Origin: Nemertoderma westbladi
Lineage: Eukaryota; Animalia; Xenacoelomorpha
DNA length: 64,000 nt
Reading direction: 5' to 3'
Assembly: GCA_032718475.1 (NCBI GenBank)
Contig: JAUCBJ010002030.1
Coordinates: 8,422-72,421, forward strand
The translations under genes were made by a program, and so were the position numbers. Shown here piece by piece: positions 29,074 to 64,000 of the stretch. Positions within the stretch are counted from its first letter, which is position 1. Every line of letters begins with the position of its first letter. The notes under the pieces are model-generated. The model saw only the letters and a program-made list of their open reading frames with translations, did no database searches and was not told the origin of the DNA.

Positions 29074-29872
29074 TTCGGTAGTTGTAAGTCAAGTAAAGTG
29101 AGTGTCAAAGTATCAAACTTACCATATTTTATCTAAACGGTACTAATTACAGTCATATAAAATTAGCCTACCGGCCGATTTTATAGCAGATGGATAAAAT
29201 TAGCCTAAACGGCCAATTTTACAGCAAATAAATGTCACGGAATAAGTATATAATAAAATTAGCCTAGCGGCCAATTTTATAACAAATAAATCGGATAACG
29301 ATATGCGTTATCAAAAGGTAAATTAAATACAATAATACGGACTAATTCAGCAATGAACAAAGAAATCGTACGGAATGCATAAATACTTGAGGCAGTGGAA
29401 CCCACAATAATTTTAACTAATACGGTAATGCCTAACTTATTTATGCAACTTTTCGAACTCACCCACTCCAATAATTCTCCAGAAAAACAGATTCCCAGAT
29501 ACAAACCGGACGTGAACCTTTCCGTTTTTAACGTTGCGGACGAAGCGCGATTTTCCCAACCAAAGTTGTTGAGTTATCTATCTCCCAAACTTGCTAAACA
29601 CGGTCTTGCTCCCGTTACAGTCTAGAAATGAGTTCTGAATCCTGAAAAAACAAAAGAGTTAGGTTTTACTTTTTACGAAAATTTTGTACCGGTACAATAT
29701 GGTATTTAAACCCTTTTAAACACCGGTATTCAATTCCAAAATATTTTACACGCGGTTCAAATCAAATTTTTATTTCAAAAAATTAGCACTTAGCTAATCA
29801 AATACAAATTTTTACCTCAAAATACAAAATTTTCAAATAACTTTAGTCCTACCGAACCGTAGTTCAGTAAAA

Positions 29873-29883
29873 CATATTCCTAC
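29873..29883 (-). promoter_or_regulatory. E1 PBS-position sequence GTAGGAATATG, complementary to the element's own LTR (30911-30921)
   Basis: 11/11 reverse complement starting at the first base after the LTR; no TGG tRNA PBS nearby. Confidence 0.75.
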
Positions 29884-32706
29884 TAATGCGAAGAGACAGT
29901 AACAATACCTGCAATATCCTACTGTAAAGTTTGTGAATCAAATCATAAATCCGACCTTCTCACCAAACAGTAAACTCTAAGTAAGCGAATATATTGCAGT
30001 ATCGATCTCTTATAACCGGTGAGGCAGAAAACAGTCTACGAGCAGACAAACTTCGATAAAACAAAATCCCGCGCAGCGAATCCTAAAATCAGGCTGACTC
30101 ACTGACGGACTAAAGGGCTCGTATACTTTGCCGCGGTGTGATTTATATGGTTGGGCAAAGAGACGCTAGCTAGGTACAGAGGCAGAGATTTGGAGATGTC
30201 TAACTAGCGGGCAAAACACAGTAAGGACGAAAGTTAATTTTATATATTTTGAGGTGTAAATAATTTCTAACGCGCGTGTGTTAATTCTGAACGGTCAAAA
30301 GCAGTTTTGCTCCTTCACATATATAATTACTGGGTACGGTGTGCATTTTACGAATATTCTAATTTTGTAACTTGTAGGTCCAATACTCACGAATGATAAG
30401 GTTCCTTCCCCTCTTGCGTATTTCCAGGACTCAAATTCAGGCATAAGGTTAATGCTATGCCCAGAATTCGGCAATTTTAATTTACCAGGTCCCTAATACT
30501 AAGAAGAAATGTGTTAGTTTACTACAGTAGGCGTACGGTTACGAATAGCTATCCTGGCTCTTATCTAGAATTTTAGTCACCTAGGTAGGCTGGGTAACTT
30601 CCTATCAGGACGTTGGCGGGGACACGGTAGATGTTAGTATATCCCTAATAGCCTCAATTTATTTGCGCCTAGTTGTAAACTGCCCTACCGCCTGAACGGT
30701 ACAATCCCAATTCAGGTGAAACACAGCAACCCTCCTAGCCTACAAGTTCTAATGCAATGGACACCATTGTACTGCAAATAGTCGCAAACGCACCTGTACT
30801 TAGCAAGAGTTAGGCGTACAGTTTGCTGCACCCTACCAATGTGTATGCTTCGTACCGGCGTACCTACGTCCTATCTGCGTACTAGTATCTGCCTGCTCTC
30901 TCCCTCCCCCGTAGGAATATGAAGGTCTACTGTGGTTCTTTCCTGAATCAAGACAGTACAGTCCCTAAGATGTAATTTTAGGCTCACAGCGTGTCACTAC
31001 TTCTACCTTTGATCTTTGGTCTTACGCTTAGGTAGCAAGGCGTCGAACGCTGTCTAACCTTTCAGGCGATGGGCGAATAACTAAGGTGGTATTGCGGGTT
31101 GTCTCCTGTCTACATTCCCTTGATGTTCCCGTTCATTGCTGCGGCCCGATCTCTAGCCGGCCATCCTGTTCCTAAGAGTGTTCACCGTAGTGAATCATGG
31201 TGAAAAGAAAAGCAGATAGCAGTATTTCTGAATTTATTGCAGATAATAATACAAAATGTAATCTGAAAACTAATGACAGAATAAACAAGATTGAGTAACT
31301 AATAAGATTAGATAGATTGCACTGAGATTGATAACTAATGAACAAATCGCACCTTTATATAGCAAATTTGTGCTGCAATCAATCGAGAAAATTCTCGATT
31401 GTTCTATAGGTTCTAACAGGTTTTTAAAGATAGCTATTGGTCCAGCTAATATATAACTTGCACGACATTGGATACAATCTAATAACTGCAGTCTCATTGG
31501 TTAATCTAGGTACAAACAAATGCAATGGAGCCACTCCACGAGGCGAACCGCGCGGCACTGCGGGCGGCCACAACAACGCCACTCGAGATCGCCCGTCTTA
31601 ACGTTGTTGACGACCCGGTATCCGGTTGTTGGCTGGACGCTATTCCCATCAGCTCGCTAGGGCTGAAACTCACGGACTCCCAGTTCAGGGTTTCTGTCGC
31701 CACACGCCTCGGTTGCAAGTTAACCGAACCCCACAGGTGCTCCCGGTGCGGATCCGAAGTAAAACCGGATGGTCTCCACGGACTATCCTGTGTGAGAAGC
31801 GCCGGGAGGCTGCCACGCCACTCTATGTTAAACGACATAGTGAAACGTGCATTGGCCTCCTGTGGGGTTAGAGCTCGCCTTGAACCGGTCGGGTTGTGTA
31901 GGGCTGATGGGAAGCGTGTCGATGGCGTTACCCTCGAATCGTGGAGTGGGGGCCGGCCGATGACTGGGATGCGACCGTCGTCGACCCCCTCGCTCCCAGT
32001 CATCTCGCCCAGAGCATGCAGGCCGGCCGCCATGTTGTCGAGGAGGCGGAAAACTCAAAGATTAAGAAATACGAGGAACTGACCGTCCGAGGGAGCTACC
32101 TCTTCTACCCGGTAGCATTCGAGACCTTCGGTCGGCCCGGTCCTGAGACGGCTGCATTCCTTAAGGAGGTTGGCCGACGCCTCCACGCAGCCACTCAGGA
32201 GCCGCGATCCCATCGGTTCCTCCTCCAACGTCTCCTCGTAGCCATCTTGATCGGCAACACGGCCTCCATCCTCGGCTCCATGGACCCTCTGTCCGACGGC
32301 CTCTACGACGAGGTTTTGTCGCCAGCTGCCCCCGCACCCCCCACTGACTCAGCGGGTTAGACTGATCTTGAACTTTTGTATATAGTTAGGTAGGTAGTTT
32401 ATATTAATTTAGTTAGTGTGCCTCATTGTGCTATAAGAAAATAATGCAATTTAATTTGTAGCGGTTAATTTAAATGAGTTGAAATTCTGTACAAAAAATA
32501 ATTCGCACTTACTAGGATTCGAACTCAATACCTACTACACATATAATTTCCAACGCTCTACCGACTGAGCTACTGAACCACTTGACTAAACGTCGTACAA
32601 TAGATATAATAAATACAAATGAGGACTCAAAGTAATCTTTTACAAAGTTAATTCGAATAAAATAAAATTTTGAAAATCCACGGCATTTAGGGAATATAAT
32701 TCTATA
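29884..32706 (-). repeat. E1 5' LTR, interrupted by a 916-bp CRE-like insert
   Basis: Matches 13302-15200 at offset 16582 before and 17506 after the insert. Confidence 0.95.
31527..32442 (+). mobile_element. 5'-truncated CRE-like non-LTR retrotransposon (zinc knuckle + restriction-like endonuclease), frameshifted
   Basis: CSRCG...HGLSC, RHSMLND, DGKRVDG, WDATVVD, EEAENSKIKKY, FYPVAFETFG; 8-bp TSD AATGCAAT at 31519-31526 and 32443-32450; absent from the other LTR. Confidence 0.88.
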
Positions 32707-39306: not shown

Positions 39307-40448
39307 TGTTCGCGCTTTTAGACCTTTAGCAGTTTAACCTGCCAATTTTAGTTGTGCTTTTGTTTATAAATCGACTTTAGCCTATATAAATTATTTAGTG
39401 TACTGAAATTACATCAGCCGAAGCCAGTCTGTGCGCGACCATTCACCCACAGTTAAGGGAGACTGGATTCGGATGCTTTGATAGTGATTGCGGTGTAGAC
39501 CTACTGTATTATTCGATTGATCGTTACTATATAATCTCTGACAATATATTTACTTTCGGGGAAATATTAACAGTTCCTTTAGGACGTGGCGCTTTAAGTA
39601 TAAAAACAGAGTTATGACTTATACTAATCACAACTAGATGGCCACTACTGAGTTTCGTAAAAAGCGCATTCTTTAGGAGATGCTTATTACTTCACACTAC
39701 TTCACACTGACTTCACACTACTTCACACTGAATCTGCCGACCATCACTGAATTTGATCATATATAAGGAGGATCGCAACTGACACATGTAGGGATTATGA
39801 AATAGCATTTAATTCACACAAAAACCACTATAATGTAAGTCGCAGTTGCTACCGGTAAACCTGTTCCTCTCACCTTCAGTAATCAAGAAGATTGGGGGTT
39901 TTATGATTATTCATTGGTATTCTCCAAATATATCAGCAATATACATCAATATCACAACAATTAATAACAGAAGTAAAATAATGCGGTGAACAGTCAGTAT
40001 GTGTTACTTATGCAGTGTTCCATGTGCAGCAATGTTATGCAGTGTGTCGTTCGTGATTCAGATTGGTGATCCAAGTCAGTTAATAGTTTTACGTTCTTGT
40101 AATCAAAGCCATCAGATGTTTAGGCCAAAGTCTGAAACTTCCACAACAGAAGTACAGAATAACTCTAAGCCGGTTCTCTGGCTCAGAAAGGTAAACAAAT
40201 ACCGTAATGCATTGCGCGGTTTTCCATAGGCCCCTGTCCAACATAAAGTGAAAATCGCTCTGATTGGCTGAGCAGAACAAAGAGGTTCCACGTCTACAGG
40301 AAATCAGCTGACAGATTTCGTCATCTGAGCTCCAATCTTTTAGAGTATTATGCGCATTGCGGCAAAAACGACTTGTTATGTCCGCTAAAGCACCTACACT
40401 GCGCATTGCGGGGAAAAATGACTTGTTATGTCCGCAAAAGCTTTTACA
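39307..40448 (-). repeat. E2 3' LTR (1142 bp)
   Basis: Direct repeat of 50913-52068 with several indels and substitutions. Confidence 0.93.
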
Positions 40449-40526: not shown

Positions 40527-40934
40527 TTAGTCCTTCTTACGTGAACGGCATTTACGAAGTTTTTTGAGGCTAGCAAGAGTCCTTTTCTCTTTGGGGCGAG
40601 CCACTTTACTAGGAGGGCTATAACTCCTGGGTGAGGGGTGCAATACAATTGCATCGGAAGGTTTAGGGTTACGGTCGGTGTATCCGCCGGTCGAGGTACC
40701 CGGTTGATCGATATCAACCTCAGTGGAACGAGGTCGAACAACCTTTAGAGCGCGTTTCAGGACAGCAGCTCTTACTGGTCCCTGAAGGTTCGTTTGCACG
40801 AGAGCGGTAGGTTGACCGTGAGTAGTGAGAAATTTCCTCGGTTTGATGGTTCTTTCCAACTCGCGTTCTCTGGCTTTATATTCATATGGTTGTCTATGAA
40901 CTTCTTGTATCTCTAGATACGAGTTTATGAACAA
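40527..40934 (-). CDS. Basic C-terminal extension of the E2 accessory ORF, in the -1 frame
   Basis: Overlaps the end of the 601-aa ORF; frame open from ~41066; ends in a K/R-rich tail as E1 ORF3 does. Confidence 0.5.
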   Translation of the reverse strand: MFINSYLEIQEVHRQPYEYKARERELERTIKPRKFLTTHGQPTALVQTNLQGPVRAAVLKRALKVVRPRSTEVDIDQPGTSTGGYTDRNPKPSDAIVLHPSPRSYSPPSKVARPKEKRTLASLKKLRKCRSRKKD

Positions 40935-42730
40935 GTCACCGTGGAATTTATCAATGGTAGAAACTTTAAACTGTATGTAGGATCTTCCGGTTTCGCCATA
41001 TAATATTGAGTTAAATTGACATAATAAGGGTGGTCTTTGATCCCATAAAATGAGTTCGGTAAAGGTCTAGCGCGTAGGTTGACCTCGTGTACCATACGAC
41101 GGACAAGATCCGCTCGATTGTCCGGAGGTTCAACGAGTATACCGTCGACACGAGTGGCCTCGATTGGCGGACGTTGTAACATAGGAGCGTCAGCGATAAG
41201 ATCTCTAGATCTTAGGTTGATATCAACCGGTTGGGGTTGTACCGTGGCGAAGAGTTTGTCTCCGAAATGGGGAACCATTGAAGGATGAATAATGTTTTTG
41301 GAATAGAGATCAGTCATAAGGATTTGAGCTTCTGGCTGGGCTAAAGCTGCTTCTTCTCTCTCGTCCATTTCGATATGCTTCTCCTCGAGCTGATTTTCCT
41401 CCGCTTGTCGTTGGAAGCGTTCGTCCAAAAACTCTTGCAGAGAGTAGATTCGTCCAAGTTCGATGTCTTCCTCGAGATTCTGGAATTCCCGATCAAACTG
41501 GGGTAAAGCTAATTCTTTTACCGCTTGGACTTGCCGCTGCAATTTACGTTTATCTAAACAATCGTAAGTTCCTCTTCCAATCTTTTGTCGAATAGCGTCT
41601 AGCGCGTTTCGTACAACGCTCTCCTCCACCTCGGTGACAGGTTGTATCGGGGTTAGACCGGGACGATTATACGGGTTGAACGGCGATATTAGGTGTCCGC
41701 GTCCCAATCCGGCTAGGTAAGATGGGCGAATATCTAGGGAGCCCACAACCGGAGTGCCACCGACTAATTGTTCTGGTAACACTAGATCTTTGAACAATGA
41801 GTGCAGTTCAGGAGGATCCGTCATACTATTAGGATCAAGAGTCTGAGGTCTCACCAGGGAATGGGGATGTCTGACCGAGTATTCCGGAACTCTGATCATC
41901 GGTTTATTTAAGGATCGTTTGAGTCGAGCGAGCGTAGGTGATACGTCGAACAAGTTTCGCTCGAAACTCCCGTAAGTATAGCGAGTAAAACTGTGTTTAG
42001 CGCAACGTCTCCGCGGATGTTTATGTCTTTCCGTTTGTTGGTTGGGTCTAGGGCATTCATCGCAATAATACCAAAGACGCACGTCTTGTAGGGGAAACGC
42101 GGGTGATCTTTCTCCAGTTTTACAATATTCCTCCATCTGTTCGAAGCTATCCGGTACAACAGGTAGCGGTCGATCGGCGGTAAGATACATCATAGTGAAA
42201 TAGAGTCGTTTGAGTTCTATCATAGGGTCATGATGTATACCTTGAGGATATCGAGTTTCTAGATTTTGTTGACTGGCTACATTGAGATATGTTTCTCTCA
42301 AGAATTCCAGATATTCGTTGAAGTCACTGCGTTTATCCGGCTCTTCAACGTCTTCTCTTTCGAGTTGGTTTCGAATAGAATTTTCGTGTTCGATTCTCAG
42401 TTTATCGTTCCGACTCCGCTGGGTATGATATTTAAATAGGATCATTTCCCTTTCGGTGTCTACATCGTCCGTATCGTGTAAATCGATAGGATGACCAGTA
42501 GTTAAGAAGTCCATATACGTACCATTACGATGCGTATAGCGAGCGGTGAATTTTCTATAGTCCAATTCACGCGTGAGCTGTTCCTTTGACATTGGCGGTT
42601 CGATATAATGGCCATCGTCCTCCGTAGTAGGTTGACTAGCGTCGCCGCGTATTAAACTATCAACAAACGCTTGCAAGGGTAGGGTATATCGCTCCCTGAT
42701 ACCAAGATCATCTTCTATCAACTCAGTCAT
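40925..42730 (-). CDS. E2 accessory ORF (601 aa), N-terminal region homologous to E1 ORF3
   Basis: RLYFTMMYLTADRPLPVV...WYYCDEC...RCAKH...RYTYG aligns with E1 RLYHTMQYLKAHEPMPAV...YYQCGSC...RCSNH...RYQEG. Confidence 0.8.
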   Translation of the reverse strand: MTELIEDDLGIRERYTLPLQAFVDSLIRGDASQPTTEDDGHYIEPPMSKEQLTRELDYRKFTARYTHRNGTYMDFLTTGHPIDLHDTDDVDTEREMILFKYHTQRSRNDKLRIEHENSIRNQLEREDVEEPDKRSDFNEYLEFLRETYLNVASQQNLETRYPQGIHHDPMIELKRLYFTMMYLTADRPLPVVPDSFEQMEEYCKTGERSPAFPLQDVRLWYYCDECPRPNQQTERHKHPRRRCAKHSFTRYTYGSFERNLFDVSPTLARLKRSLNKPMIRVPEYSVRHPHSLVRPQTLDPNSMTDPPELHSLFKDLVLPEQLVGGTPVVGSLDIRPSYLAGLGRGHLISPFNPYNRPGLTPIQPVTEVEESVVRNALDAIRQKIGRGTYDCLDKRKLQRQVQAVKELALPQFDREFQNLEEDIELGRIYSLQEFLDERFQRQAEENQLEEKHIEMDEREEAALAQPEAQILMTDLYSKNIIHPSMVPHFGDKLFATVQPQPVDINLRSRDLIADAPMLQRPPIEATRVDGILVEPPDNRADLVRRMVHEVNLRARPLPNSFYGIKDHPYYVNLTQYYMAKPEDPTYSLKFLPLINSTVTCS

Positions 42731-44497
42731 AGCTGCTATATGAGTTTATCAATATTATAATTAATCATAATTTAGGCTAGCAGTCGTCGCTGCCTCCCCC
42801 TCAATGCCCCCGGACAGCGCAAGCTCCTCAGCGCTGATGTACTGTCGCCGCTGTGCCTCTCGCCAACGTAGTAGCTACACAACGACAACAATAACCAGCG
42901 CGAGTCACTCCACTGTCCGTCCCAAGGGCTCAGAATTACTTCAGGTTCTTGCTACAGAGGCAGGGTAACTTTCACAACTGCGACTCGCTACTGTAAACAC
43001 ACTTTAGTAGTAACATTCACCTATAAACGCACAAATTCCACACAACTGTCACAAATTGTACACATTCGGGCCATTTGTCCGTTAGTCAAGTGCCTTCCAG
43101 AATGCCACGTTATTATTATGTATCCCTGGATACTAGCAGTGTGCTATTTATTCCGTATGCTATTCAATGGGGTAAGCTTTCTATTGTTCTTTTAACTCGC
43201 TTCTAATTCTAGCGTGGTTGTTGCAATGGTGACATTATGGAAAGCTAGCAGTAGAATTAGGGAAATTCTCATGCATACAGATCTGGGATGCTATTTAATA
43301 GTAATTCTTTAATTGTCAATATTCCCCTTTATACATGATTTTATGAATTTTATCGGCTATTGACTAGATATTGGAGATTCTCGCACACTAATATACTTAA
43401 TAGGGTGAATCTCTGCTCCCATGATCTATTAATTAATGGAATTTTGGGAATGTTATAAATTGTATAAAATGACAATTTATCAAAATCATGAGAGGATAAG
43501 AATTTAAATTTATTCCCGTAAATTTTATTATTTAATATTAAAATAGACACAATTTTACTCCAGAACATGTCTGTCTGGGGACTAGGATCCTTAATTCTAG
43601 GAAATTTGTTTTTTTAAGAGCATCGGTAAGTGCTACGATATCTTAATCGACTAGAATTTTTAAAGGATCTGAATTTTAACAGATTTTGATTTATAGATTT
43701 TTTTGGTTTACAAACTCCTTAGAGTTTATTTGTCTGCATTTACTCTATTATAACATTTGTTTTAATAGATTTTTATAAATATTAAATAGTTAATATTTAA
43801 GATGGGCACCGATTTATTCCAGAACTTGTCTGGGGACGTTAACCACTGATTCTAGAATTTTGTCTTTCAAGTATATCGGTGGGTGCCGCGATATCTTAAT
43901 CGACTAGAATTACAGATGGTCAAAGGGTTTAACAGATTTATTTTGCGTTTTACGCTACTGTTAAAGGGACATCACGCTACTATATGTATTATTTAATATA
44001 CGGCATGAGAGCAATATTGCAAGAAGCAATGTCAGTGAGAAGAGGCAAGTCGTTTCCAAGGTCTACCCAGAGCTTGGTTTAGCCGAGACACGAGGATCTG
44101 AACTTTGCATTCCTAATACTCTACTTACCAATAATACTTGAGTATAGTAGGAGCTTTATTGTACTTTAATAAGTACGGACATTTCATCTTACTGTAGTCA
44201 CGTATTTATAATATGATACGGACAGTAAGGAAAGAGAAAAATAATTATTTCTCGCCGTTGCACTAAATATATAATGTTAAGTAATTAAGTAATAAACACG
44301 GGTATATATATTGCACTAATCTACTAAATATTCGCCAAAATAACATTCTACTAAATAAAATTAAAGAAAACGATTATAATAAAATTATATAATAATACAT
44401 ACATAAATATAAAAATAATAAAAAAAATATAAAATACTATAGTCACACACCCACTCCAGACGCTGTTACGTTGGGGAGTCCCTAGATGTTGGTTGGA

Positions 44498-46639
44498 TTA
44501 GGGAGGTGGTCGTGGGAAGAGTATCTTGCCTTCCATAGTTTCCGGACAGTTCTCGGTCTCTTTCCAGTAAACATAAACGACCAACTGGGCGATTGAGTTG
44601 TTGTGTTTCGAAAACAATTCCAGGTTTCTTCTTCGTCCTGGAATAGTGATGATGGAAACACCGGTGAGGAGGTCGATTGTGTTTTCCTCATCGTATAATT
44701 GAGTAATATCGTCATTATCTGAGGAGTATGGTGTTCTCTCAGTTGTGGTTTCTCCCTCACTTATTTCTTCTTCCCATTCACTCACCTGATGTATCCTCTC
44801 TTGAGGGAGTCTTTCCATTAGTGTTCTACGGGAAGGTCCAGTGAAGTACCAACCTACTCTCGTTCTTCCCGCGTATGTTTGTAATGGTTGCGGTCGAGCA
44901 GGCCGTTTTTCTAATGTCTCAAGTGCCTCATGCGCATTCTGGCCGATTAATATCTGCACCCCTGGGTAGTCGGTGTTGAATCTAGGGATATCATGCTGCT
45001 GGGTAAAATGGTCTTCATCCCAGTTGTAAGGTTCCACTTGGCTGGTAGCAAAGTTCTTTATCGCCACCATTTTTACTGACCTTATGCTATGTTCTCCTAG
45101 TTCATCCTGGGGAGTGGACAACACACCCACATAGTAGTCTGTAGCTATTGTGGATTTCCAAACCTGCATAATTCCTGAAAGGTTCAACTTAGTTCGGAAC
45201 TTGGGTTGTCCAGCAAAGATGTCTTCGGCTAGTTCTTTGTCGATGAATGTACCTGTGCTGCCGGAGTCAAGGAGGGCGTTTACTATTAAACTTTTCTCTA
45301 GTCCGTGGACTCTCAGCTGCACTACAGGGAATTCCCGGATTCCGACGTTGGAAGTTGGCGCTTTCCAAGTTGGTTGCCGGTCCGGAATAGTCAGTTGATT
45401 ATCGGTTTCAGTCTCATACGTAAGCACTCGATACACTGCGGTGTTTATCATATTACAGGATTCGTTTTCGTCGGAGAATTCGTCTGTGTAGAATCCTTCC
45501 ATCTCAGAGCTGTGGTCAGTGTCGTTCACATCACTGAATTGGACATGTAGTTCGGGCTCACTTACCTGACTCGTGCGGGTTTTGTCAAATTCTGTGTGCA
45601 GCAAGATGTGATGTTTCGCGCCGCACTTAGCACACCTAGCATCTGAGTAACAGGTCCGCCGTTGATGTCCTCGTCTGAGGCAATTATAACACAACCGCTT
45701 ATCCCACATGACATCACGTCTATCCTTAAGGGATTTCTTTAAGAATTCATCACACCCACTCAAGCGATGGGACCCGTCACACAATACACATTTAGGCTTG
45801 ATGTTACTTACTTTAACCTGTGCTGTGTGGTGCACACTTGTTCTTTCCTCAGGCTTTCTTCCATGAATTCTCTTAGGAGACGTAGGAGGAGTTGTTGTTA
45901 CCTGTTCTCTCCTGTCACTGGTTCGAGACTTATATTTACTTACGTCTTTCTGAGTTTTGTTGACATAATAAGAACTTTCGGTGTCTTTCCCGCTGTTCTC
46001 CTCGTGGGAGGTCTGGCTTTCGCCATCGTCTGTATAACACACTGGTGTTACCTTTCTCCTAGAGACGGGTTTTTCACTTACCTTACTTTCAGGAGTCTTC
46101 TCTCTAGACTGTTTTAGGAGTTGTAATCTTACCTCTCTGTTTAAGAATGACAGAAGGTCCGTCATGGTTGGATCTCTATGTTGTTGGTCCATCAAATAGA
46201 GAACCTTTTTGTCCCAGCGAGTACCTACTCCACCCTTTGGCAAAGTTGATGCTAAGGCTCCTACAACCATAGAATTCTGATATTCATGAGACTTACCTAA
46301 CCAATCTAGTTGTCTACAGATCTCCTGAATCTCATCGGAAAACTCTATAATCCCGCTGCTAAGGAACTTTCGGGGCGCTACTAATTTCGCATACAAATAC
46401 CTAGCTATGTTAGTCCTATTACCATACCTGATGTTTAGTGTATCCCAAACTTGTCTTAATCCATCTGGATGTCCAATAAACTTTAACGCCATTAACTTGG
46501 GAGGTCCTTCCAAGCACTCAATGGGGAATCTAAGTTTCTCTCCGTTAGATAGTACGGAGTTCTGTATGTTATCTTTATAATATTCATTAAAAGGTAACCA
46601 TTTCATCTCATCTCCATTGAACTTGACGACCTCTCCCAC
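44498..46639 (-). CDS. gag: E2 Gag C-terminal half + aspartic protease (frameshifted from the upstream gag ORF)
   Basis: KFNG..W, EKLRF..ECLEG; CVLCDGSHRLSGC, CYNCLRRGHQRRTC, CAKCGAKHHILLH; ALLDSGS, RTRVGW; stops with no RT. Confidence 0.88.
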   Translation of the reverse strand: MGEVVKFNGDEMKWLPFNEYYKDNIQNSVLSNGEKLRFPIECLEGPPKLMALKFIGHPDGLRQVWDTLNIRYGNRTNIARYLYAKLVAPRKFLSSGIIEFSDEIQEICRQLDWLGKSHEYQNSMVVGALASTLPKGGVGTRWDKKVLYLMDQQHRDPTMTDLLSFLNREVRLQLLKQSREKTPESKVSEKPVSRRKVTPVCYTDDGESQTSHEENSGKDTESSYYVNKTQKDVSKYKSRTSDRREQVTTTPPTSPKRIHGRKPEERTSVHHTAQVKVSNIKPKCVLCDGSHRLSGCDEFLKKSLKDRRDVMWDKRLCYNCLRRGHQRRTCYSDARCAKCGAKHHILLHTEFDKTRTSQVSEPELHVQFSDVNDTDHSSEMEGFYTDEFSDENESCNMINTAVYRVLTYETETDNQLTIPDRQPTWKAPTSNVGIREFPVVQLRVHGLEKSLIVNALLDSGSTGTFIDKELAEDIFAGQPKFRTKLNLSGIMQVWKSTIATDYYVGVLSTPQDELGEHSIRSVKMVAIKNFATSQVEPYNWDEDHFTQQHDIPRFNTDYPGVQILIGQNAHEALETLEKRPARPQPLQTYAGRTRVGWYFTGPSRRTLMERLPQERIHQVSEWEEEISEGETTTERTPYSSDNDDITQLYDEENTIDLLTGVSIITIPGRRRNLELFSKHNNSIAQLVVYVYWKETENCPETMEGKILFPRPPP

Positions 46640-46641
46640 CT

Positions 46642-49023
46642 TTACCGTTGACGGGCTTCGGTTCTAGCCATTTGACGCGTAAAACTTTCTTGGGCCATCG
46701 TATTATTTAATATCGAGTTATCAGTATATAAATTTCTCGGATTATGATCAGGTCTATATGGAATATCATTATCAACAGGTTTATAATTACCCCCAACAGG
46801 GTTCACCACAGGAGTTTCTACTTCACTAGCAGTATAGATACGTGTAGGCTCCACACCTTGCGCATGAAATACTTCAGACCTAACAGGTTGACACATTGTC
46901 ACAGGGGGTGGTGGTATACCCAATTGTATATTTACTAATTTATCGCGTTTTAACGCGATACTCTGCTGCACTTCTTGCAACTCTAACCTACCCTCTCTTA
47001 CTGTTCCCTTTAACTGCTGAACAGTCCCTTCCAACTCCCGGACCTGCTGGGAGGAACATATACGATGTTCCCTCAGCTGCCCGAGCAGGAGACCCATCTC
47101 CCGCCGTCCCTCATCCACCCACTCTACCGCCGAAGCGGGAGCCGCCAACATAGTAGCGGGTAGACGAGGGACGACGGGTGACAAATTGTTGATGTCTTGC
47201 TCGGCATCCAGGACCGGGATTGATTCAGGGGCTATTCTACTGGGCACAGGTAGTTTAGTACTGTGCAAAGGGAATTTAGAGTTAGGTTCTGGAAGTACAG
47301 GGGTCTCTATCACAGAGTTAGTGGCTCCGAGAACAGGCCTAATTATTTCAGGCTCATCTACTATAGTAGGGAGTCTTTCTACTCTAATAATTTGGTCTGT
47401 AGGCTCAGGATTACTTAAATCTACACTAGCTAGTTGCCTTCTCACTGCTGGAGGCAAATTAGGCAATTTCTGCCGGTGCAGCGCCCTTCTACGTCCACTG
47501 GAACGAGATTTATTTCCTCTACCTTCAGGATCTGTTGTATCGCCTTCATCAGAGGATGTAAATCCCTGTCTCCTGGGAGTAGATCGACTTAGCAACTGCA
47601 TCTGCGTAGCTGTCCTTTGTTTCTTCAAGTAATCGTGTTTCGCCTGAAGGTTCTCCAGCTCTAGTTGGGTAGTCGCTTCAGAAGCTTTCAGTTCTGCTTC
47701 TGTCACTGCCGCTTTCCTTTCAGATTCTGCCGCTGCCGCTGACGCCTTTCTCTCAGCCTCTGCCTCTGCCGCTTTTGCTGCTGCTTTTCTTTCAGATTCC
47801 GCCGCTGCTGCTGACTTTCGGTCTTCTATTTGCCGTTTCTTTAATTGTTCTTCTTGATCCATTACCATGAGGATGCTTTCATCAAATTTAGCCTGCTCCG
47901 CGGCTAATATTTCCGCATCTAACGAGTCCAACACAAATTTGGCCCCTTCACTATTAGGGTGAAGTCCAGCTAGCCGTCTCCTTAGCTCTTTGTCACCTAT
48001 GAATCGTTGATAGTCCGACAGATAGATGTCAATAGCATCCTTCTTCTGAGGTTTCTCTGATATAGCTTCGCTTTCCACCTGAGAAAAGGTAGCATCTGTT
48101 GACTCTCCGTGGGTCATGCGCTCGGTTAGCTGAGCTTTCCATTGTGTCGTTCCCTGGACTTTAAGACTCACCCATTGGAACCAAGTTTTTACGGCAACTT
48201 GCAACGACGTGTCTTGGCTTCTCTTCGAAGCTTCTTCAAAGGCCGAAAGGTTTAGTCTGATCCGTAAAATTCGTTCTCGCACTTGATAAAGCAGCTCTCC
48301 CTGCTCTTGAGGTCCTTGACGTTGTTGAAACAGGTGTTCCTCTAAGCGCTCCAAAGAGCTGAAGAATCCCTGGACATATCCCGCTGCCGACCTCTTCCAC
48401 ACAGCTGGATCTCGAGTGTCTCTTACTACTCCCATCCTGTATAAGTCCTCCCAAGCAGCTTCCGATACGTTAAATGGAAGTCCAGGTCCGGGGAAGTTCC
48501 ATTGCGTCTCGACAATAGACCTTAATTCCTCCATCGTATATCCCGCATAACTGTCCTTGGTCGATCGCTTACTTCTCGCCCAATCGATTTGATGTTCTTC
48601 CACCGCAATCAATACTCTAGTGAGTACAGCTCCAGGAAGAATTAGAAGTGGATCTGGATAAGCCACTTCTGCCATCCTTGCTCCGATTTCGGGTGTCAAC
48701 TGTACAGTGTCTGAACTACTGGAGTTATCGGGCTGTTGAGAAATAAGTTCTCGGTTCGGGTGCTGCTGCTGTTTAACAGCTGCCTCTTGGTCCCGCTTGA
48801 CTTGAGCCCTAGTGCCTATGATATACCCATGGTGTTTTACTAGCCTAGGGTCTGACACTACTACTGTAGGGATGACCTTTCTTACAGTAGGAGGGGACTT
48901 GGACTTTGGTCTCAGACGTTCTATACTCTTAGCTGAGTCCCAAATCTTTGTAAGACCCTGTCTAACACTCATTCTAACACTTTCTAAGAGACTATCTGAC
49001 AGTGTTTGTTTTGTGTCAGACAT
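46642..49023 (-). CDS. gag: E2 Gag N-terminal half (793 aa)
   Basis: ATG after the 5' UTR, AAAAESERK coiled-coil repeats, ends at ARQ where E1 Gag reads ARQGLP...KFSG; homologous to E3 62917 onward. Confidence 0.82.
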   Translation of the reverse strand: MSDTKQTLSDSLLESVRMSVRQGLTKIWDSAKSIERLRPKSKSPPTVRKVIPTVVVSDPRLVKHHGYIIGTRAQVKRDQEAAVKQQQHPNRELISQQPDNSSSSDTVQLTPEIGARMAEVAYPDPLLILPGAVLTRVLIAVEEHQIDWARSKRSTKDSYAGYTMEELRSIVETQWNFPGPGLPFNVSEAAWEDLYRMGVVRDTRDPAVWKRSAAGYVQGFFSSLERLEEHLFQQRQGPQEQGELLYQVRERILRIRLNLSAFEEASKRSQDTSLQVAVKTWFQWVSLKVQGTTQWKAQLTERMTHGESTDATFSQVESEAISEKPQKKDAIDIYLSDYQRFIGDKELRRRLAGLHPNSEGAKFVLDSLDAEILAAEQAKFDESILMVMDQEEQLKKRQIEDRKSAAAAESERKAAAKAAEAEAERKASAAAAESERKAAVTEAELKASEATTQLELENLQAKHDYLKKQRTATQMQLLSRSTPRRQGFTSSDEGDTTDPEGRGNKSRSSGRRRALHRQKLPNLPPAVRRQLASVDLSNPEPTDQIIRVERLPTIVDEPEIIRPVLGATNSVIETPVLPEPNSKFPLHSTKLPVPSRIAPESIPVLDAEQDINNLSPVVPRLPATMLAAPASAVEWVDEGRREMGLLLGQLREHRICSSQQVRELEGTVQQLKGTVREGRLELQEVQQSIALKRDKLVNIQLGIPPPPVTMCQPVRSEVFHAQGVEPTRIYTASEVETPVVNPVGGNYKPVDNDIPYRPDHNPRNLYTDNSILNNTMAQESFTRQMARTEARQR

Positions 49024-50912
49024 GATTTATTTTACAGTTGAATGCCTACTACTGTAACGACAGTTAAAGCAAGTCTAGTAATTCAGTATCAACTGTAAGC
49101 CTCGTAATTAATTACCGATACCGTTACTCAGTGTAACATGATATATATAATTAATATTAAAATACCGGTATACTTATAGTATATATATAAGTATTATTAC
49201 AGACTAGAATTAGTTACAGAATACCGGTATATAATTTCAGGCTAAATTTATATAAATAAATATAATAAGCCTACCGTAAATACCGGTATACACCTATGGT
49301 ATATATAAGTATTATTATAGACTAGGATTAGTCACAGAATACCGGTATATAATTTCAGCCTAAATTTATATAAATATATATAAAAATCCTACTTTGAATA
49401 CCGGTAATGTCAATTATTTTATAATAACTGTATTTCTGAATTTTTAGGGTTACTTCCCTTTACTTATTACTGTTATTAAGCAGTAGTTCAACTGATATTA
49501 AGACCTAATGGATGTATAACAGGCCTACTATTTTATAAATCGGTTTGAGTTGATTTATAATATATATATATACCCGTACAAGGGGTTTTGTCAATGTTTG
49601 AAATAAATGTTATTATTTCTGGGTAAGGTGTCACTACACAAAAGCTGTTCGCTCTCAGTGGAGTGCTACTTGATGGACACTAAAACGAATAATTCTACTT
49701 TACTAAGTTACTTATCACTAGAAATTACTTACAATCACAGTTTGAGACTACAATCTCTAAATAAACACTAAAAAGTTACACATACAAGTTTTAGGGTAAT
49801 TTTACAAGAAATCTACAAACCAGCCTAACAAGGAGTTAGAATTTCTGGTTCTTACAAACTGACAGGATACTACGGTATTTGAAAACAATAAAGCAGTAGT
49901 AAGTAAATTGCGTTGTCCAGATAAGAAAATACCACCGTCTGACGACTTATAGTCTTAGCTCTATAAGTACTACGTTATGTATCCGGAGTGTCCTTACCTA
50001 GAAGTTAATTACTGCAGCCAACCAGAGCTAACATGCCTATTAACCACTTTACAACACAAATATACTGCCTATACACTAATTACTTTCAGAAAGCACTGTA
50101 CACTAAACCCTAAATTAGGTACAAGTACTTATACAACAAATAACCAGCAGTTAAATATACTTGAACAGCTAAAAGAACCACGGTATCTGCTGGAGTGACC
50201 GGAGCACAAAATCACCAGTCTTTACCTACGCCAAGCAGCCCTGATGTAGTACTGGGGTTAATTTAACTATAACGGTATGTATAACAAACACAATTACTGT
50301 AGTAATAAACTTGGGGGTTGTAGGTTGCGAATACTCGCATAGACTCTGAATAATAAATATTACGCTACCCGTGCAGACTATACAAACTAAATACAGACCA
50401 AATGCTGGCAGACTACTGGCAAGCCTAAATAAACTACAGTATATGCAGACTCCGAAATGGTTAGTTAGTAGGCGTTCTAACCGAGTAGTACGACTTATTC
50501 TTTCGGGGAGGATTTACCTTACAGCACTGGATGCCCCCACCTTCCTAACTAGCACTTTATCGGACAGACACTCTATACACACTGCAATCGCTTCAGACCT
50601 AACAACAGCTAGACAACAATCCGGCCTACAAATTATTTGTACAATCTGAGCAGGCTTACACGCCTTCTGCTCAATATTACAACTTACAGATAAATAAAAC
50701 TGACAGAAATAAGTAAACCATACAAAGGAATAAGGGGTGATCAATCCCTAATCCCCTAACAGCCTACAATATACAATATATCACAATCTAAATAATACTG
50801 GTACCTGTAAGTACCGGTTCGGGTAGTTTAGGCAGTTAGGCCTACAGTTTACCATCCGACTGGTACATTTGAATTTATTGCCTTCGTGCAATCAAGAGTT
50901 TAAAACTATTAA

Positions 50913-52068
50913 TGTTCGCGCTTTTAGACCTTTAGCAGTTTAACCTGCCAATTTTAGTTGTCCTTTTGTTTATAAATCGACTTTAGCCTATATCAATTAT
51001 TTAGTGTACTGAAATTACATCAGCCGAAGCCAGTCTGTGCGCGACCATTCACCCACAGTTAAGGGAGACTGGATTCGGATGCTTTGATAGTGATTGCAGT
51101 GTAGACCTACTGTATTATTCGATTGATCGCTACTATATAATCTCTGACAATATATTTACTTTCGGGGAAATATTAACAGTTCCTTTAGGACGTGGCGCTT
51201 TAAGTATAAAAAACAGAGTTATGACTTATACTAATCACAACAAGATGGCCACTGCAGCACTGAGTTTCGTAAAAAGCGCATCCTTTAGGAGATGCTTTAT
51301 TAACCTTCACACTACTTCACACTACTTCGCACTGATCTGCCGACCATCACTGAATTTGATCATATATAAGGAGGATCGCAACTGACACATGTAGGGATTA
51401 TGAAATAGCATTTAATTCACACAAAAACCACTATAATGTAAGTCGCAGTTGCTACCGGTAAACCTGTTCCTCTCACCTTCAGTAATCAAGAAGATTGGGG
51501 GTTTTATGATTATTCATTGGTATTCTCCAAATATATCAGCAATATACATCAATATCACAACAATTAATAACAGAAGTAAAATAATGCGGTGAACAGTCGG
51601 TATGTGTTACTTATGCAGTGTTCCATGTGCAGCAATGTTGAGTTGCAGTGTGATGCGTTTCAGTGATTGAGATATGAAGTATGATTCAGCAATGTTTCAG
51701 TTAATAGTTTTACGTTCTTGTAATCAAAGCCATCAGATGTTTAGGCCAAAGTCTGAAATTCCACAACAGAAGTAGAGAATAACTCTAAGCCGGTTCTCTG
51801 GCTCAGAAAGGTAAACAAAGACCGTAATGCATTGCGCGGTTTTCCATAGGCCCCTGTTCAACATAAAGTGAAAATCGCTCTGATTGGCTGAGCAGAACAA
51901 AGAGGTTCCACGTCTACAGGAAATCAGCTGACAGATTTCGTCATCTGAGCTCCAATCTTTAAGAGTATTATGCGCATTGCGGCAAAAACGACTTGTTATG
52001 TCCGCTAAAGCACCTACACCGTGCATTGCGGGGAAAAATGACTTGTTATGTCCGCAAAAGCTTTTACA
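50913..52068 (-). repeat. E2 5' LTR (1156 bp)
   Basis: Direct repeat of 39307-40448; TG...CA; followed by TTAATAGTTTTA (50912-50901), complementary to 51701-51712. Confidence 0.93.
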
Positions 52069-54985: not shown

Positions 54986-56175
54986 TGTAAAAGCTTTTGC
55001 GTCATTAACCGGTTATTTTACCTTAAAGTACTCTGTAGTTGGTTTGCCAGGCATAAAAAGGCCGTGTCCTTGCTGTACTGGTGTTTTAGAGGACATAAAA
55101 GTCATTTCTTCTGTATTTGTACTGTATTTGTACTTTAGAGGACATAATCCGCAATCTCGTGACGCGATAAGCTGGATACTCTTGAAAACAGTGTCGCTAC
55201 CATGACGACGGCTAACAGCTGATATTGCCACGTCGACGTTTCTTTGTTTCTTTGTTCTCTCGTTGTTCGGTTGACCAATCAGAGCGTTTTTTGTCTCTGT
55301 GTTGGAGGTGTATACAGAACTCAGTAGTTCAGTGTGTTATGTTTTTGCTCAGAGCCTAAGAACATCGGCTTTTAGCACTTCCGTATATCAGCGTTCTTTA
55401 GCTTTACATTAGTAGGCTTAATTATAGAACGTATATCTGTTATCGAGTTAATTACAACCTATTTACTACATACAATCTAACCAAACCAATTATATGCAAT
55501 TCATATCTTACATTACTGCTTTTGCTGTTGGTTATTCGTTATATTTGTTGATGAAATATTATATCGGAATACTGATCAATAGTCAGACACCCCACCTTCT
55601 TGATATACTAAAGGTTAGAGAGACCGGTTACAGATAAACGATTGCGACCTATGTTGAGTGGTTTGAAGTGAATTTAATGCTATTTCATATGCCCAACATA
55701 AATTGTCTGTTGCTCTCTTTATGCGTGACCAAATTTAGTGAAGGTCGGCAAATTAGTGTGCAGTATTGTGCAGCATTGTGTATGATTGTAACTGATAACA
55801 AAGCATCTCCTAAAGAATGCGCCATATACGTTAATCTATAGCCTTTTCGTTGTGACTAGTTTAAGTCATAACTCTGTTTACATATTTAGAGCGCCACGTC
55901 CTAAAGGAACTGTTAATATTTCCCGAAAGTGAATAATATTTGTCAGAGATTATATATTACGATCAGTCGAATAATACAGTAGGCTTACACCATCAATCAT
56001 TAAGCTCCGAACTCAGTCTCCCGGGTATATCCAACGGGTGAATGATTGCGCATAGACTGGCTTCGGCTAATGTAGTGTATCAAATACTCGTCATAAAGCT
56101 AAAGAATATATATCATCTAAAAGACATTCTAATTTTGGCAGGTTAAACTGTCAAAGGTCTTCAAAAGCGCAAACA
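54986..56175 (+). mobile_element. Solo LTR of the E2/E3 family
   Basis: TGTAAAAGCTTTTGCG...AAAAGCGCAAACA; homologous to the E2 LTRs; 5-bp TSD GGTGG at 54981-54985 and 56176-56180. Confidence 0.93.
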
Positions 56176-56899: not shown

Positions 56900-57101
56900 G
56901 ATGTGTAGGACAATTGCGACGTTGACAATTGCGACCCGGACAATTGCGACCCGGACAATTGCGACCCGGAAAATTGTGACGCGGACAATTGCGACACATT
57001 ATTTTGGGAAAAATTGATGGGTCGCAATTGAACGGATCGCAATTGTCCGGGTCGCAATTGTCCGGGTCGCAATTCTCCGGGTCGCAATTGTCCGGACTTC
57101 C
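56900..57101. mobile_element. 202-bp MITE with inverted arrays of GGACAATTGCGACCC, MULE-like 9-bp TSD
   Basis: TSD GTGTAGCCA at 56891-56899 and 57102-57110; left array mirrored by CGCAATTGTCC array. Confidence 0.88.
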
Positions 57102-57960: not shown

Positions 57961-58074
57961 TATGGACTATGAGATAGATTTCCATATACGCCTGTGGTAA
58001 ACGCCTTTAATAGTTTGTGGTTGTTGTCGATAATCGATTACAATACAGTATGACGTAGCAAAACACTCATTTTG

Positions 58075-59463: not shown

Positions 59464-62400
59464 TGTAAAAGCTTCTGTGGGATATAACTGGCCCCTTTTG
59501 CTTCGCAATCCAGTTTCCCCCCAGGCGCTGGAATACTCTAAAAAGGTTCTCTAACTGTATATATATTCCCCTCGCCCGCAAGGTACCGTTACAGGTGTTT
59601 TAACGGACATAAAAGTCATTCTGCTATATACGTGTTTTGGCGGACATGGTAAGGCAAAAAACCTGTAATGCACCAACTACCTTTCACAGCTTAGCCGTGA
59701 TGATTCATATTACGACATCTAACAGCTGGTTGCTGACATGGAAACAGCCATTGGACGCATAGTTCTTTGTTTGGCTTGAGCCAATCAGAGCGATTTTTCC
59801 TGTCGACGTGTAGCTTTTCAGCCGATCATAAGGAGAGTGTTCAGTCTTACTGCCTTACTTGATACTTTGTTGTTATTGCTGTCTAAGCCAGAAACACCGG
59901 CTTTTTGGGAAGAACTCTAGTAAAACTGCTTAGATTATAGAAAGTATAACTGTTACCGGCGGTGTTACCTCACTTAATTTGACTGCACTAATCATATTGT
60001 TTGTACTGCTATTTACCGTCAGTTATTAATTGTACCTATTTGTTGATGGAAATATTGCTCTTTGGATAATACGGATAAATCACCCAAATTCCCAATTTTC
60101 TTGATACACTACAGGTTAGAGAGACCGGCTATACATAACAATTGCGATTTATATTGATGTGGTGTGTATTGAATCCAATGTTATTTAGCAGACCCTACGT
60201 GAGTCAATTGCTGCTCTCTTTATGTGTGATCAAATATACTGACGGTCGGCAGAATAGTGTGCATGATTGTGAGTGTGATGTGACTGGTAACAAAGCATTT
60301 CCTAAAGAATGCGACTTATACTTTAATCATAAGCCTTATCGTTGCGTTTAGTATAAGTCCTAGCTCTGTTTAAATAGATAGAGCGCCACGTCCTAAAGGA
60401 ACTGTTAATATTTCCCGAAAGTTAATAATATCTGTCAGAAATTATATATTAGCGATCAATCGAATAATACAGTAGGCTTACACTGCAACCTTACACTGCA
60501 ATAATAAAATCTAAGCATCCGAATTCAGCCTCCCGGGTGTAGATCCATCGGGTGAATGATCGCGCATGGGCTGGCTTCGGCTAATGTTTTGTTTATTAGC
60601 ATAAAATATTGTCGTATGCTAAAGGTGTGTTAATTAACTAAAAGACATATAAATTTTGGCAGGTTAAACTGCTAAAGGTCTTCAAAAGCGCGAACAGTAA
60701 CAGTTACTTTGTATTGCAGTGTAAGCATTAAATACAGTTTAATACTGTTCTGTCGAACAGTAACAGTTATGATCTTATTGCAGTAGGCAATAAGGTTGCA
60801 AAATACCGTAGTAACCGGTATTTCTGTAGGTCTGTAGGCCCAACTGTCCTAACCGGTACTGCTGTATAAGTACATTAGTATTATTCGATTTTGATTATTG
60901 TATACCGGTAGGTCTTGGTACTTAATCAGGGAACGGCCGCCCTGATTTTTATTTGAGATTCTACTTATTTCTGTCGGTTTTATTTACTAGTAGGCTAATA
61001 TTGAGCAGAAGGCGTGTGACCCTGCTCAGATTGTTCAGATAATTGTAGGCTGAGCTGCTGTCTGACTGTGTTGAGTTTGGAGAGATTACGGCGTGTGTAG
61101 AGTTTGTCTGATCAAGTGCCGTTAGTAAGTTGGGGCAGCCATATGCTGAAGGTCAATCCCCTCTTAAAGAATAAGTCGTACTACCGTGTTAGAACGCATA
61201 CTAACTAACAGTTTCAGAATCTGCATATACTGTAGTTTATTTAGGCTTGATCGTAGTCTGCCAGTGTTTTAGCCTGTGTTTGTTTGTGTGGTCTGTTCAG
61301 GTACCGTAATAGTTATTACTCAAATATTTGTAGGCTGGATTGTTGTCTAGCTATTTTTAGGTCTGAAGGGATTGCTGCGTGTGTAGAGTTGGTCTGATCA
61401 AGTGCCGTTAGTAAGTTGGGGCAGCCATAAGCGGTAAGGTCAATCCCCTCTTAAAGAGTAAGTCGTACTACCGTGTTAGAACGCATACTAACTAACAGTT
61501 TCAGAATCTGCACATACTGTAGTTTGTTTTAGGCTTGATAGTAGTTTGCCAGCGTTTGGTTTGTATTTGTTTGAGTATTCTGTACGGGTAGCGTAATATT
61601 TATTATTCAGAGTTTATGCGATTATTCGCAACATTCATGTCCCCAAGTTTATTCCTACAGTAATTGTGCTTGTTATACATACCGTTATAGTTAAACTAAC
61701 CCCGGTACTACATCAGGGCTGCTTGGCGTAGGTAAAGACGGACGACTTTGTGCTTCGGTCACTCCAGCAGATGCCGTGGTTCTTTTAACTGTTCAAGTAT
61801 ATTTAACTACTGATTATTTGTTATACCGGTACTTGTACCTAATTTAGGGTTTAGAGTACAGTGCCTTCCGAAGTAATTAGTGTAGGCAGTATATTTGTGT
61901 TGTAAAGTGGTTGATAGGCACATTCGTTAGCTCTATTAGCTTCTGGGTAGGAACAATCCGTGATACATAACGTAGAACCTATAGCGATACGGTTATAGGT
62001 CGTCAGGCGGTGGTATTTTCCTATCTGGACAGTACAATATATTTACTACTACTTATTATTTAAATACCGTAGTACCCTGTCCTTTGTAATAGCCAGAAAT
62101 CTAACCCTTTGTTAGACTGGTTTGTAGACTTCCTGTAAAATTACCCTAAAAATTTCGTACGTAATATTTGTTGTGTTTAATTAGAGATTTAATCTCACCC
62201 GTATCGTAAGTAATTTGTAGTATTAAGTAACTTAGGTAAATTAGAATTATCTGTTTTAGTGTCCAATAAATAGCACTCCACTGAGTACGCACAGCTTCTG
62301 TGTAGTGACCCCCCAGAAATAATAACATTTATTTCAAATATTGACAAAACCCTTTTAAATGGGTATATAAATATTATAAATCAACTCAAACGATTTATAA

Positions 62401-64000
62401 ATAGTAGGCCTGCCATACAACAACTAGGTCTCAATATCAGTTGGACTACTGCTTAAATAACGGTAACAAAGTAAGTTAAAGTAACCAAGTAACCCTAAAA
62501 TATTCAGAAATTCAATTATTCTAAAATAATTGACATACTGGTATTTACCATAGGCTTATTATATTTATTTTTATAAATTTGTGCTGAAATCATACCGGTA
62601 CTCTGTAATTAATTATAGTCCAGAATTATACTTATATACTATAAGTGTAGGCTGTATACCGGTATTCACGATAGGCCTATTATATATTTATATATATTTG
62701 TGCTAAAATTATATACCGGTACTCTGTGACAAATCTAGTCTGTAATAATACTTATATATATTATAAGCATACCGGTATTCTAATATATTATATATATATA
62801 TCACGCTACACTGAGTAGCAGTATCGGTAATTAATTATTAGGCTAACAGTGATACTGAATTACTAGACTTGCTTTAACTGTAATATAGCAGTAGGCATTC
62901 GACTGTACAATCAAACATGGCTGACACAAGGCAAACTCTGTCAGATAGTCTCCTAGAAACAACAGCCTGTTTCTCAGATCAAAGTGTAGAGAATCCCAGA
63001 CCGAGGTCTGAAACCCCTCATACTGTAAGAAGGGCAACCCCTGCAGTGGTTGTGTCAGAACCTAGGTTGGTAGAAAAGATTTCGCAATTTGCGAAGTTAG
63101 TGAAGCGCCGTTGGTCTGCCATAGGCACTCGGGCCCAAGTCAAGCGGGATCAAGAAGAAGCTATAAAACAGCAGCAACCTCCTAGCCAAGAACCTAGTTC
63201 TCAGCGGCCCGATAGCTCCAGTAGTTCGGATACTGTTGAGCGGACGCCCGAACGCGGAGCGAAGATGGCGGATACGGTTTATGATGAGCGGCCAACCTAT
63301 GAAGAATCAACCGACGCCACTTCTTCTCAAGTGGAAAGTGAGGTGGAAAGCGAAGTGGAAAGCGAGGTGGAAAGCGAAGTGGAAAGCGAATTAACATCAG
63401 CAGAGAAGCCGCGAACTAGAGACGCTATCGACATTTATTTGTCCGACTATCAGCGATTCCTAGGAGACGAAGAGTTGAGGAGACGGCTGTCTGGACTTTC
63501 CCCTAATAGTGAAGGAACCAAGCTTATATTGGACTCAATCGATGCCGAAATGTTAGCTGCAAACCAAGCTGAATGTGATGAAAAACTCCGCCTCATTAGA
63601 GTCCGAGAAGAACAAGTAAAGAAAGAACTGATAGAGAGAAGAAAGGTAGCAGCAGCAGCGGCGGCGGAAGCAGAAGCAGAAAGAAAAGAAGCAGAAGCCG
63701 AAAGAAAGGCAAAAGCGGCAGAAGCAGAAGAAGAAAGAAAAGCGGCGGAAGCCGAAAGAAAGGCAACAGTGGCAGAAGCAGAACGGAGAGCGTCTGAGGC
63801 GACTATCCAATTGGAGTTGGAAAAGCTGCAAGAGACGCAAGACAGTATAAATAAACAGTTTACTGCTAATCAAATGCAGATGATGAGAAAATCTACTCCC
63901 AAGCGTCAAGGATACACATCCTCGGAGGAAGGCGATACTACCGATCCTGAAGGCGGAGGAAATAGATCTCATCTAAGTAGGCGTAGAAAAACATATTACC
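59464..64000 (+). mobile_element. E3: diverged E2-family element (5' LTR 59464-60696, 5' UTR, degraded gag), runs off the window
   Basis: LTR TGTAAAAG...GCGCGAACA; 60.8-62.9 kb is reverse-complement homologous to E2 49.0-50.9 kb. Confidence 0.9.
62917..64000 (+). pseudogene. gag: E3 gag N-terminus, frameshifted and internally deleted
   Basis: MADTRQTLSDSLLE vs E2 MSDTKQTLSDSLLE; DAIDIYLSDYQRF; TSSEEGDTTDPEG. Confidence 0.85.

Follow-up and report, generated by a model that had tools for sequence, protein, structure and literature searches.

The window, by which we mean the whole stretch of 64,000 nucleotides from Nemertoderma westbladi that was analysed, contains nested LTR elements, of which E1 and E2 lie on the minus strand and E3 and a solo LTR on the plus strand. 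Their main parts are as follows:

32706 to 13302, minus: E1, whole element
29884..32706, minus: E1 5' LTR, with TA...TA ends, split by an insertion of about 920 bp
13302..15200, minus: E1 3' LTR, 1899 bp, with duplication CCCTA
16090..29088, minus: E1 gag (DUF1759), pol (Pao peptidase, integrase zinc domain, DUF5641) and a third ORF (ORF3) of 1281 aa
52068 to 39307, minus: E2, whole element
50913..52068, minus: E2 5' LTR
39307..40448, minus: E2 3' LTR
40925..49026, minus: E2 coding region, with gag in two frames, a protease-like region and a homologue of ORF3
54986..56175, plus: solo LTR, with duplication GGTGG
59464..60696, plus: E3 5' LTR, with TG...CA ends; the element continues past the end of the window
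62884..63999, plus: start of the E3 gag-like ORF, about 54% identical to E2 ORF1

E3 and the solo LTR belong to the LTR family of E2 (72-76% identity), while the LTR of E1 is unrelated in sequence and gives no alignment with the LTRs of that family. Target duplications are 5 bp long in E1, E2 (TTGTA) and the solo LTR, and the ends are TG...CA in the E2 family; the E1 LTRs (13302-15200 and 29884-32706) have TA termini instead and yet show a clean 5-bp duplication. The insertion in the E1 5' LTR (about 920 bp, 31527-32442) is GC-rich with one AT-rich end and has an 8-bp duplication. Both E1 LTRs have, close to where they begin (14995-15080 and about 32500-32585, minus strand), a tRNA-like stretch, with what we take to be A-box and B-box-like motifs, which is called by neither ARAGORN nor Rfam; a search of the window for tRNA genes found none.

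With respect to coding capacity, the top homologues of the E1 reverse transcriptase (RT) and RNase H are BEL/Pao polyproteins of marine animals, with at most 44% identity. A single TGA (25945-25947, minus) divides E1 gag from pol in the same frame, for which both programmed read-through and mutation are possible. In the E2 coding region (40925..49026), RT, RNase H and integrase were all looked for and none was found. A third ORF after pol is common to E1 (16090-19935) and E2 (40925-42745) on the minus strand, with 31% identity over 133 aa; the E1 protein matches no Pfam family at the cut-off and has a faint zinc-knuckle match only, and for the E2 protein a search of 7,992 candidates of similar length found no homologue at E <= 0.001.

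The remaining contents of the window include E0, consisting of older BEL/Pao pol remnants (10721-13195 and 36006-36461) that are broken by E1 and by a LINE-like RT ORF (32720-35428) and for which the window holds no LTR pair. Tandem arrays with periods of 20, 28 and 68 bp are found at 4608-5754, 56153-57413 and 58019-58630, and 15-bp arrays in inverted orientation near 56900-57095. Sequencing runs X2 and X3 contain the solo LTR's empty site (54981-56180) as a joint, which suggests that this insertion (54986-56175) is polymorphic.

Complementarity between the LTRs and the bases behind them

In E1, E2 and E3, which represent two BEL/Pao families, the 10-12 bases that follow the LTR are complementary to a site within the element's own LTR. 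We refer to the LTR site as the putative self-primer site and to the post-LTR bases as the primer binding site (PBS):

30911..30921, minus: E1 putative self-primer site, recurring in the 3' LTR at 14329-14339
29873..29883, minus: E1 PBS, 11/11 complementary
51701..51712, minus: E2 putative self-primer site, recurring in the 3' LTR at 40080-40091
50901..50912, minus: E2 PBS, 12/12 complementary
55432..55443, plus: primer-site variant of the solo LTR
59945..59956, plus: E3 putative self-primer site, TATAACTGTTAC
60697..60706, plus: E3 PBS copy 1, 10 bp with the primer site
60754..60771, plus: E3 repeated LTR-end hexamer CGAACA and PBS copy 2, 11 bp plus a G·U pair

Pairing begins at the first base past the LTR in all three elements, and by its orientation the 3' end of the primer abuts the LTR end. 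In E3, primer position 1 forms a G·U pair or none, and copy 1 leaves primer position 2 unpaired as well. The primer site and the PBS are 740-1030 nt apart, and no TGG, and hence no tRNA-type site, occurs in the first 8 nt past the LTR of E1, E2 or E3. The 12-nt complement of the solo LTR primer site (55432..55443) is absent from the window.

The strings that the original prediction quoted for E2, E3 and the solo LTR sit where it had placed them, and the second hexamer and PBS copy that it described in E3 is indeed present (60754-60771) and pairs over 11 nt, to which a G·U pair is added. The same prediction had read the bases behind the LTR (TTAATAG in E2, GTAACAG in E3) as changing in step with the LTR site at two pairs. 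The covariation holds, and the count has to be raised, since three columns, namely primer positions 3, 8 and 12, are changed on both sides between E2 and E3. Its author overlooked the 11/11 pairing in E1, where an independent LTR shows the same feature.

The rough chance of three mirrored changes between E2 and E3 is 8e-4. When the complement of random window positions was sought in the preceding 1200 nt (17,936 positions), complements of at least 10, 11 and 12 nt were found at frequencies of 0.0058, 0.0037 and 0.0027, respectively, which are inflated by repeats. Post-LTR bases compared with the LTRs of other elements gave no contiguous match of at least 11 nt in 552 comparisons and one of 10 nt (1/552). 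The complementarity is thus a real feature and not the product of chance, as the mirrored changes, the recurrence in E1 and the relatives described below attest. The further claim that it is a selected duplex does not follow from the covariation, because the primer would be copied into the PBS in each cycle.

When the whole region of 860-1130 nt was folded, the core of the helix reached pair probabilities of about 0.68-1.0 in E2 and about 1.0 in E1, and E3 preferred copy 2 (about 0.96) over copy 1 (0.0). Since a perfect helix is expected to form, these folds are a sign of compatibility and not a proof. The core duplexes are weak (E2, -8.8 kcal/mol), and extended pairing upstream of the core is not significant, with p = 0.07, 0.22, 0.036 and 0.17 in the window and p <= 0.05 in 3/22 relatives. 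Local folding z-scores are mostly unremarkable. The 3' part of the LTR has features of its own:

60290..60696, plus: conserved LTR 3' part of E3 with predicted stems, the last helix ending 3 nt short of the PBS

This 6-bp helix, a candidate U5 stem-loop, shows one two-sided change, in a comparison of three distinct LTRs only. The corresponding parts of the three LTRs (60290-60696, 55800-56175 and 50913-51300) share an invariant block of 35 nt as well as alternative helices in which single compensatory changes occur, a pattern in which a pseudoknot is possible. No Rfam match at gathering score occurs in the window, the conserved LTR 3' part included, and the three LTRs give weak sub-threshold matches only (E 0.49-6.9). 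The layouts of HDV-like, group I and RNase P RNAs were compared by eye with the conserved LTR end and dropped, the partner for the HDV P2 being missing.

As for signals around the primer, CCAAT is conserved 168-186 nt before the primer end and the nearest TATA in E1 lies at 450 nt, positions that would mildly favour an internal primer over one at the 5' end of the RNA. E2, E3 and the solo LTR share no conserved poly(A) hexamer past the primer, whereas in 17/22 relatives a hexamer of this kind lies within 250 nt of it. In the E2 family, a weak donor and an acceptor are aligned between primer and PBS and form a candidate intron.

The variable zone and the elements in other assemblies

Directly behind the primer site, the LTRs of the E2 family vary strongly:

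55444..55520, plus: hypervariable zone past the solo LTR primer site (end approximate)
59957..60010, plus: variable zone directly past the E3 primer site (end approximate)

Seven sequencing runs are listed, none of which is on record as RNA. Contigs were aligned to the solo LTR, the measure being summed contig depth and not copy number; by this measure the E2-type LTR family is very abundant. Just past the solo primer site, the depth falls from 232,498 to 504 in run X1, from 222,461 to 1,349 in X2 and from 110,053 to 664 in X3, a 160- to 460-fold drop for the bin that follows the site, beyond which it recovers; three joints leave from 55444. In the LTR pair of E2, 19/50 listed differences fall at +4 to +61 of the primer end, a second cluster lies in a short tandem repeat, and elsewhere 20/1086 aligned bases differ. 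The LTR pairs of 12 relatives show no clustering past the primer (0.027 per base from +1 to +25, the other bins ranging from 0 to 0.073), and for this reason the argument for a hot spot is confined to the window family.

At the opposite end of the LTR, contigs from three studies cross into an E3-type PBS. Depth on the E3 LTR end is high through PBS base 9 and about 1,000-2,700 after base 11, and some of the loose contig ends carry bases that complete 12 pairs, with a common class having one extra T behind PBS base 9. Among the contig rows listed, a PBS of the solo type, which may occur all the same, is not seen. The loose ends resemble the leader behind E3 copy 2, which is also the leader of most contigs of the family, and this makes copy 1 and its spacer the less common form. 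Scans with DNA motifs gave no matches in viral contigs and none in metagenome contigs, a 16-mer had 4 matches, and protein scans confirmed no relative in viral contigs.

Relatives were collected by RT alignment, as 80 metagenome loci (the best 80 of 645 confirmed) and 24 loci from genome bins, and a terminal repeat was found in 52/104 of them. The 24 loci (L085-L108) that encode BEL/Pao pol relatives come from prokaryotic genome bins and are probably host DNA binned there. In these relatives, short self-matches begin right after a pyrimidine tract and AG. A formal test covered 21 relatives in which the LTR end was seemingly fixed by two copies. Of these, 10/21 have a pairing of 11-15 nt that spans the junction of a GT-AG intron within the LTR, two (L065 and L095) pair 10-11 nt contiguously as the window elements do, three have a TGG and a self-match of at most 5 nt, and six qualify under neither test. 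A shuffled PBS gave 0/2400 matches of at least 10 nt, and the cross matches (8/552) were all between tree neighbours. The tRNA-type TGG sites are those of L036, L072 and L104.

A blind scan of 83 loci from other assemblies, each with at least 300 nt upstream, found matches of at least 11 nt in 31/83 loci and 20/58 families, against 3/166 in the null; the match of L099, which lies away from the LTR end, is probably due to chance. Most of these pairings span the spliced junction of a predicted intron inside the LTR, and since the DNA thereby holds a copy of an exon junction, they point to an RNA partner. In the window, the best junction pairing is 7 nt in E1, none in E2 and 5 nt in E3, as opposed to contiguous pairings of 11, 12 and 10 nt. 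The distance from primer to PBS also differs, being 45-360 nt in the relatives where measurable and far longer in the window (740-1030 nt).

The primer end was compared in 22 families, with one locus each and with 10-nt cases included, after L088, L099 and L104 had been dropped for lying off the LTR end. It reads AC in 19/22 families and AT in 2/22, and is followed by C or G in 20/22, a signature that is partly built in, because a T in that place would lengthen the pairing where there is no spacer. The four primer ends of the window are AC|G, AA|C, AC|C and AT|C, of which those of E1, E3 and the solo LTR fit the A-(C/T) end followed by C or G, like the relatives.

In a tree of RT and RNase H (45 rows, root arbitrary, backbone support 23-66), 22 junction families together with L065, L095 and the TGG-type L036 form one clade that leaves out E1 (SH-aLRT 99.2), and E1 groups weakly with E0 (81.5). 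E1 is the only one of the window's primer-bearing elements in the tree, E2 and E3 having no RT here. The window form is thus an intron-less variant whose primer and PBS are separated by 740-1030 nt, and its lineage falls outside the junction clade. Because of this position of E1, the relatives support the window mechanism by analogy only. Loss of an intron as the source of the window's primers finds no support, given E1's place outside the junction clade and a backbone support of 23-66; the contiguous primer may be ancestral or may have arisen independently. The presence of L036 within the junction-primer clade suggests a switch of priming mode.

How reverse transcription may be primed

The reading that best accounts for these data is that E1, E2 and E3 prime reverse transcription as Tf1 does, with their own RNA instead of a tRNA, to which we assign a probability of about 0.78. 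The RNA of the element would fold in such a way that the LTR site pairs with the PBS past the 5' LTR, and would then be cut just past the paired stretch, with the element's RNase H as the probable agent; a cut after primer base 11 or 12 would leave a 3'-OH beside the LTR end. From there, minus-strand DNA would be copied 740-1030 nt back to the cut and would then jump to the 3' LTR, and imprecise jumps would produce the variable zone after the primer site. The primer could lie internally or, as in Tf1, make up the 12 nt with which the RNA starts, and E2, lacking an RT, would use the enzyme of a partner. Several findings speak against this reading: the primer is much farther from the PBS than in the relatives, a conserved poly(A) hexamer is missing, the core duplexes are weak and not significantly extended, the LTR pairs of 12 relatives show no clustering past the primer, and E1 stands outside the junction-primer clade.

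In LTR reverse transcription, the plus strand copies the tRNA primer and thereby rebuilds the PBS, and in Tf1 the self-primer is reportedly copied into the PBS by the plus strand in the same manner. In the window elements, the plus strand would likewise copy the primer into a new PBS, so that mutations in the primer would be mirrored without two selected hits, and the covariation between E2 and E3 probably arises from such copying in each cycle.

Three other explanations have to be weighed. The duplex could be a selected RNA structure, with a role in packaging, dimerisation or translation control, while a host RNA, such as a tRNA fragment, does the priming. The ICTV description of BEL/Pao elements as primed by host tRNA-Arg or tRNA-Gly (PMC8742986) speaks for this, as do the other conserved stems in the LTR 3' part; we nevertheless judge it unlikely, since TGG follows none of the three LTRs, all three TGG-bearing relatives (3/3) are without a self-match, and the PBS differs at 3/12 positions between close relatives and wholly in E1, changes that no fixed host RNA would follow. 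We find it quite unlikely that the primer acts in trans, as a short RNA that comes from any LTR of the family, solo LTRs included, ends at the site and anneals to the PBS of a packaged genome. In favour of this, the family is very abundant in the contigs, a loop of 740-1030 nt is long for pairing in cis, and plus-strand copying would give matched PBS variants here as well; against this, each element fits its own LTR variant, the E2 PBS being complementary at 12/12 positions to its own site, which differs at 3/12 from that of E3, and the helix forms readily in predicted cis folds. That the complementarity is a functionless relic at the DNA level, an inverted repeat made by one inversion or template switch, is very improbable, for common as short inverted repeats are in this repeat-rich window, the idea fails on the mirrored changes, the independent case of E1 and the matches that exist in relatives only after splicing, and is largely refuted by the formal test on the relatives and the blind scan.

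Should self-priming be the mode of replication of these elements, the absence of a tRNA site past their LTRs would be explained, the PBS of any copy could be read from its own LTR, and the RNA end would map to one base; the relatives, for their part, should require splicing. Priming independent of tRNA would then extend to the two families of the window and to about one third of the related families scanned, in one of the main LTR superfamilies of animals, and would revise the assumption that the ICTV makes for BEL/Pao. It would also have a bearing on the idea, raised in PMC3601003, that self-priming is older than tRNA priming.

We put forward a wider reading tentatively, holding it at somewhat less than even odds: self-priming would be a major and possibly ancestral mode of BEL/Pao replication in animals, in which the divergent lineage of the window keeps an intron-less primer joined to the PBS over 0.7-1.0 kb of structured LTR RNA, whereas in a large sister radiation the primer is interrupted by a spliceosomal intron, which would make reverse transcription dependent on host splicing. 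Each cycle would write the PBS anew from the primer, and cutting and strand transfer would have left the hypervariable zone as their scar.

Comparison with known systems

According to the ICTV description, the Belpaoviridae have LTRs of 0.2-1.2 kb and a PBS of 18 nt that matches tRNA-Arg or tRNA-Gly; their replication is called poorly understood, with tRNA priming assumed (PMC8742986). The window elements resemble this family in the DUF1759 gag, the pol order protease-RT-RNase H-integrase, the Pao peptidase, DUF5641 and the 5-bp duplications; the pol order and gag that characterise BEL/Pao are found in E1, E2 keeps gag and a protease-like region, and the pol of E3 lies outside the window. They differ from it in having no tRNA site, in the E1 LTR of 1.9 kb with TA...TA ends and in the ORF3 of E1 and E2, which belongs to no Pfam family. 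Judged from their predicted proteins they are BEL/Pao-type elements by these proteins only, as the tRNA-type PBS of the ICTV description is absent.

The BEL/Pao relatives with splice-junction primers (L005-L093) share with the window the lack of TGG, a self-match of 10-15 nt and the A-(C/T) end followed by C or G; unlike theirs, the match in the window is contiguous and without an intron, and E1 branches outside their clade. The literature searched contained no report of self-priming in BEL/Pao, a mention in subscription papers, Repbase reports or supplements being possible, and a search of PMC554778 for priming gave no passage.

In the literature searched, Tf1 has been shown to prime itself, and for Tj1, sushi, Tcn1 and TAR this is a prediction (PMC6317226, PMC7175516, PMC4600332, PMC3286476, PMC3601003, PMC12440569, PMC3118150, PMC6934838, PMC5445492, PMC8220671, PMC6238403). 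For the plant elements Tcn1 (gypsy) and TAR (copia), the prediction is based on at least 10 nt, starting 0-5 nt past the LTR, that are complementary to the LTR (PMC6317226). The same sequence diagnostic is found in E1, E2 and E3, whereas Tcn1 and TAR belong to other superfamilies and hosts.

Self-priming Ty3/gypsy elements include Tf1 and Tf2 of Schizosaccharomyces pombe, Tj1 of S. japonicus and the Tf1/sushi group, and the RNase H cut of Tf1 falls between bases 11 and 12 (PMC7175516 and PMC4600332). Like the Tf1/sushi group, the window elements have no tRNA site and carry about 11 nt behind the LTR that are complementary to their own LTR RNA. Unlike that group, their proteins are of BEL/Pao and not of Ty3/gypsy type, as seen from the Pao-type domains and the BEL/Pao homologues, and in contrast to Tf1 their primer lies 740-1030 nt from the PBS and may be internal instead of at the 5' end of the RNA. 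On their sequence, the window elements are predicted to work in the manner of Tf1 self-priming while standing outside the Tf1/sushi group.
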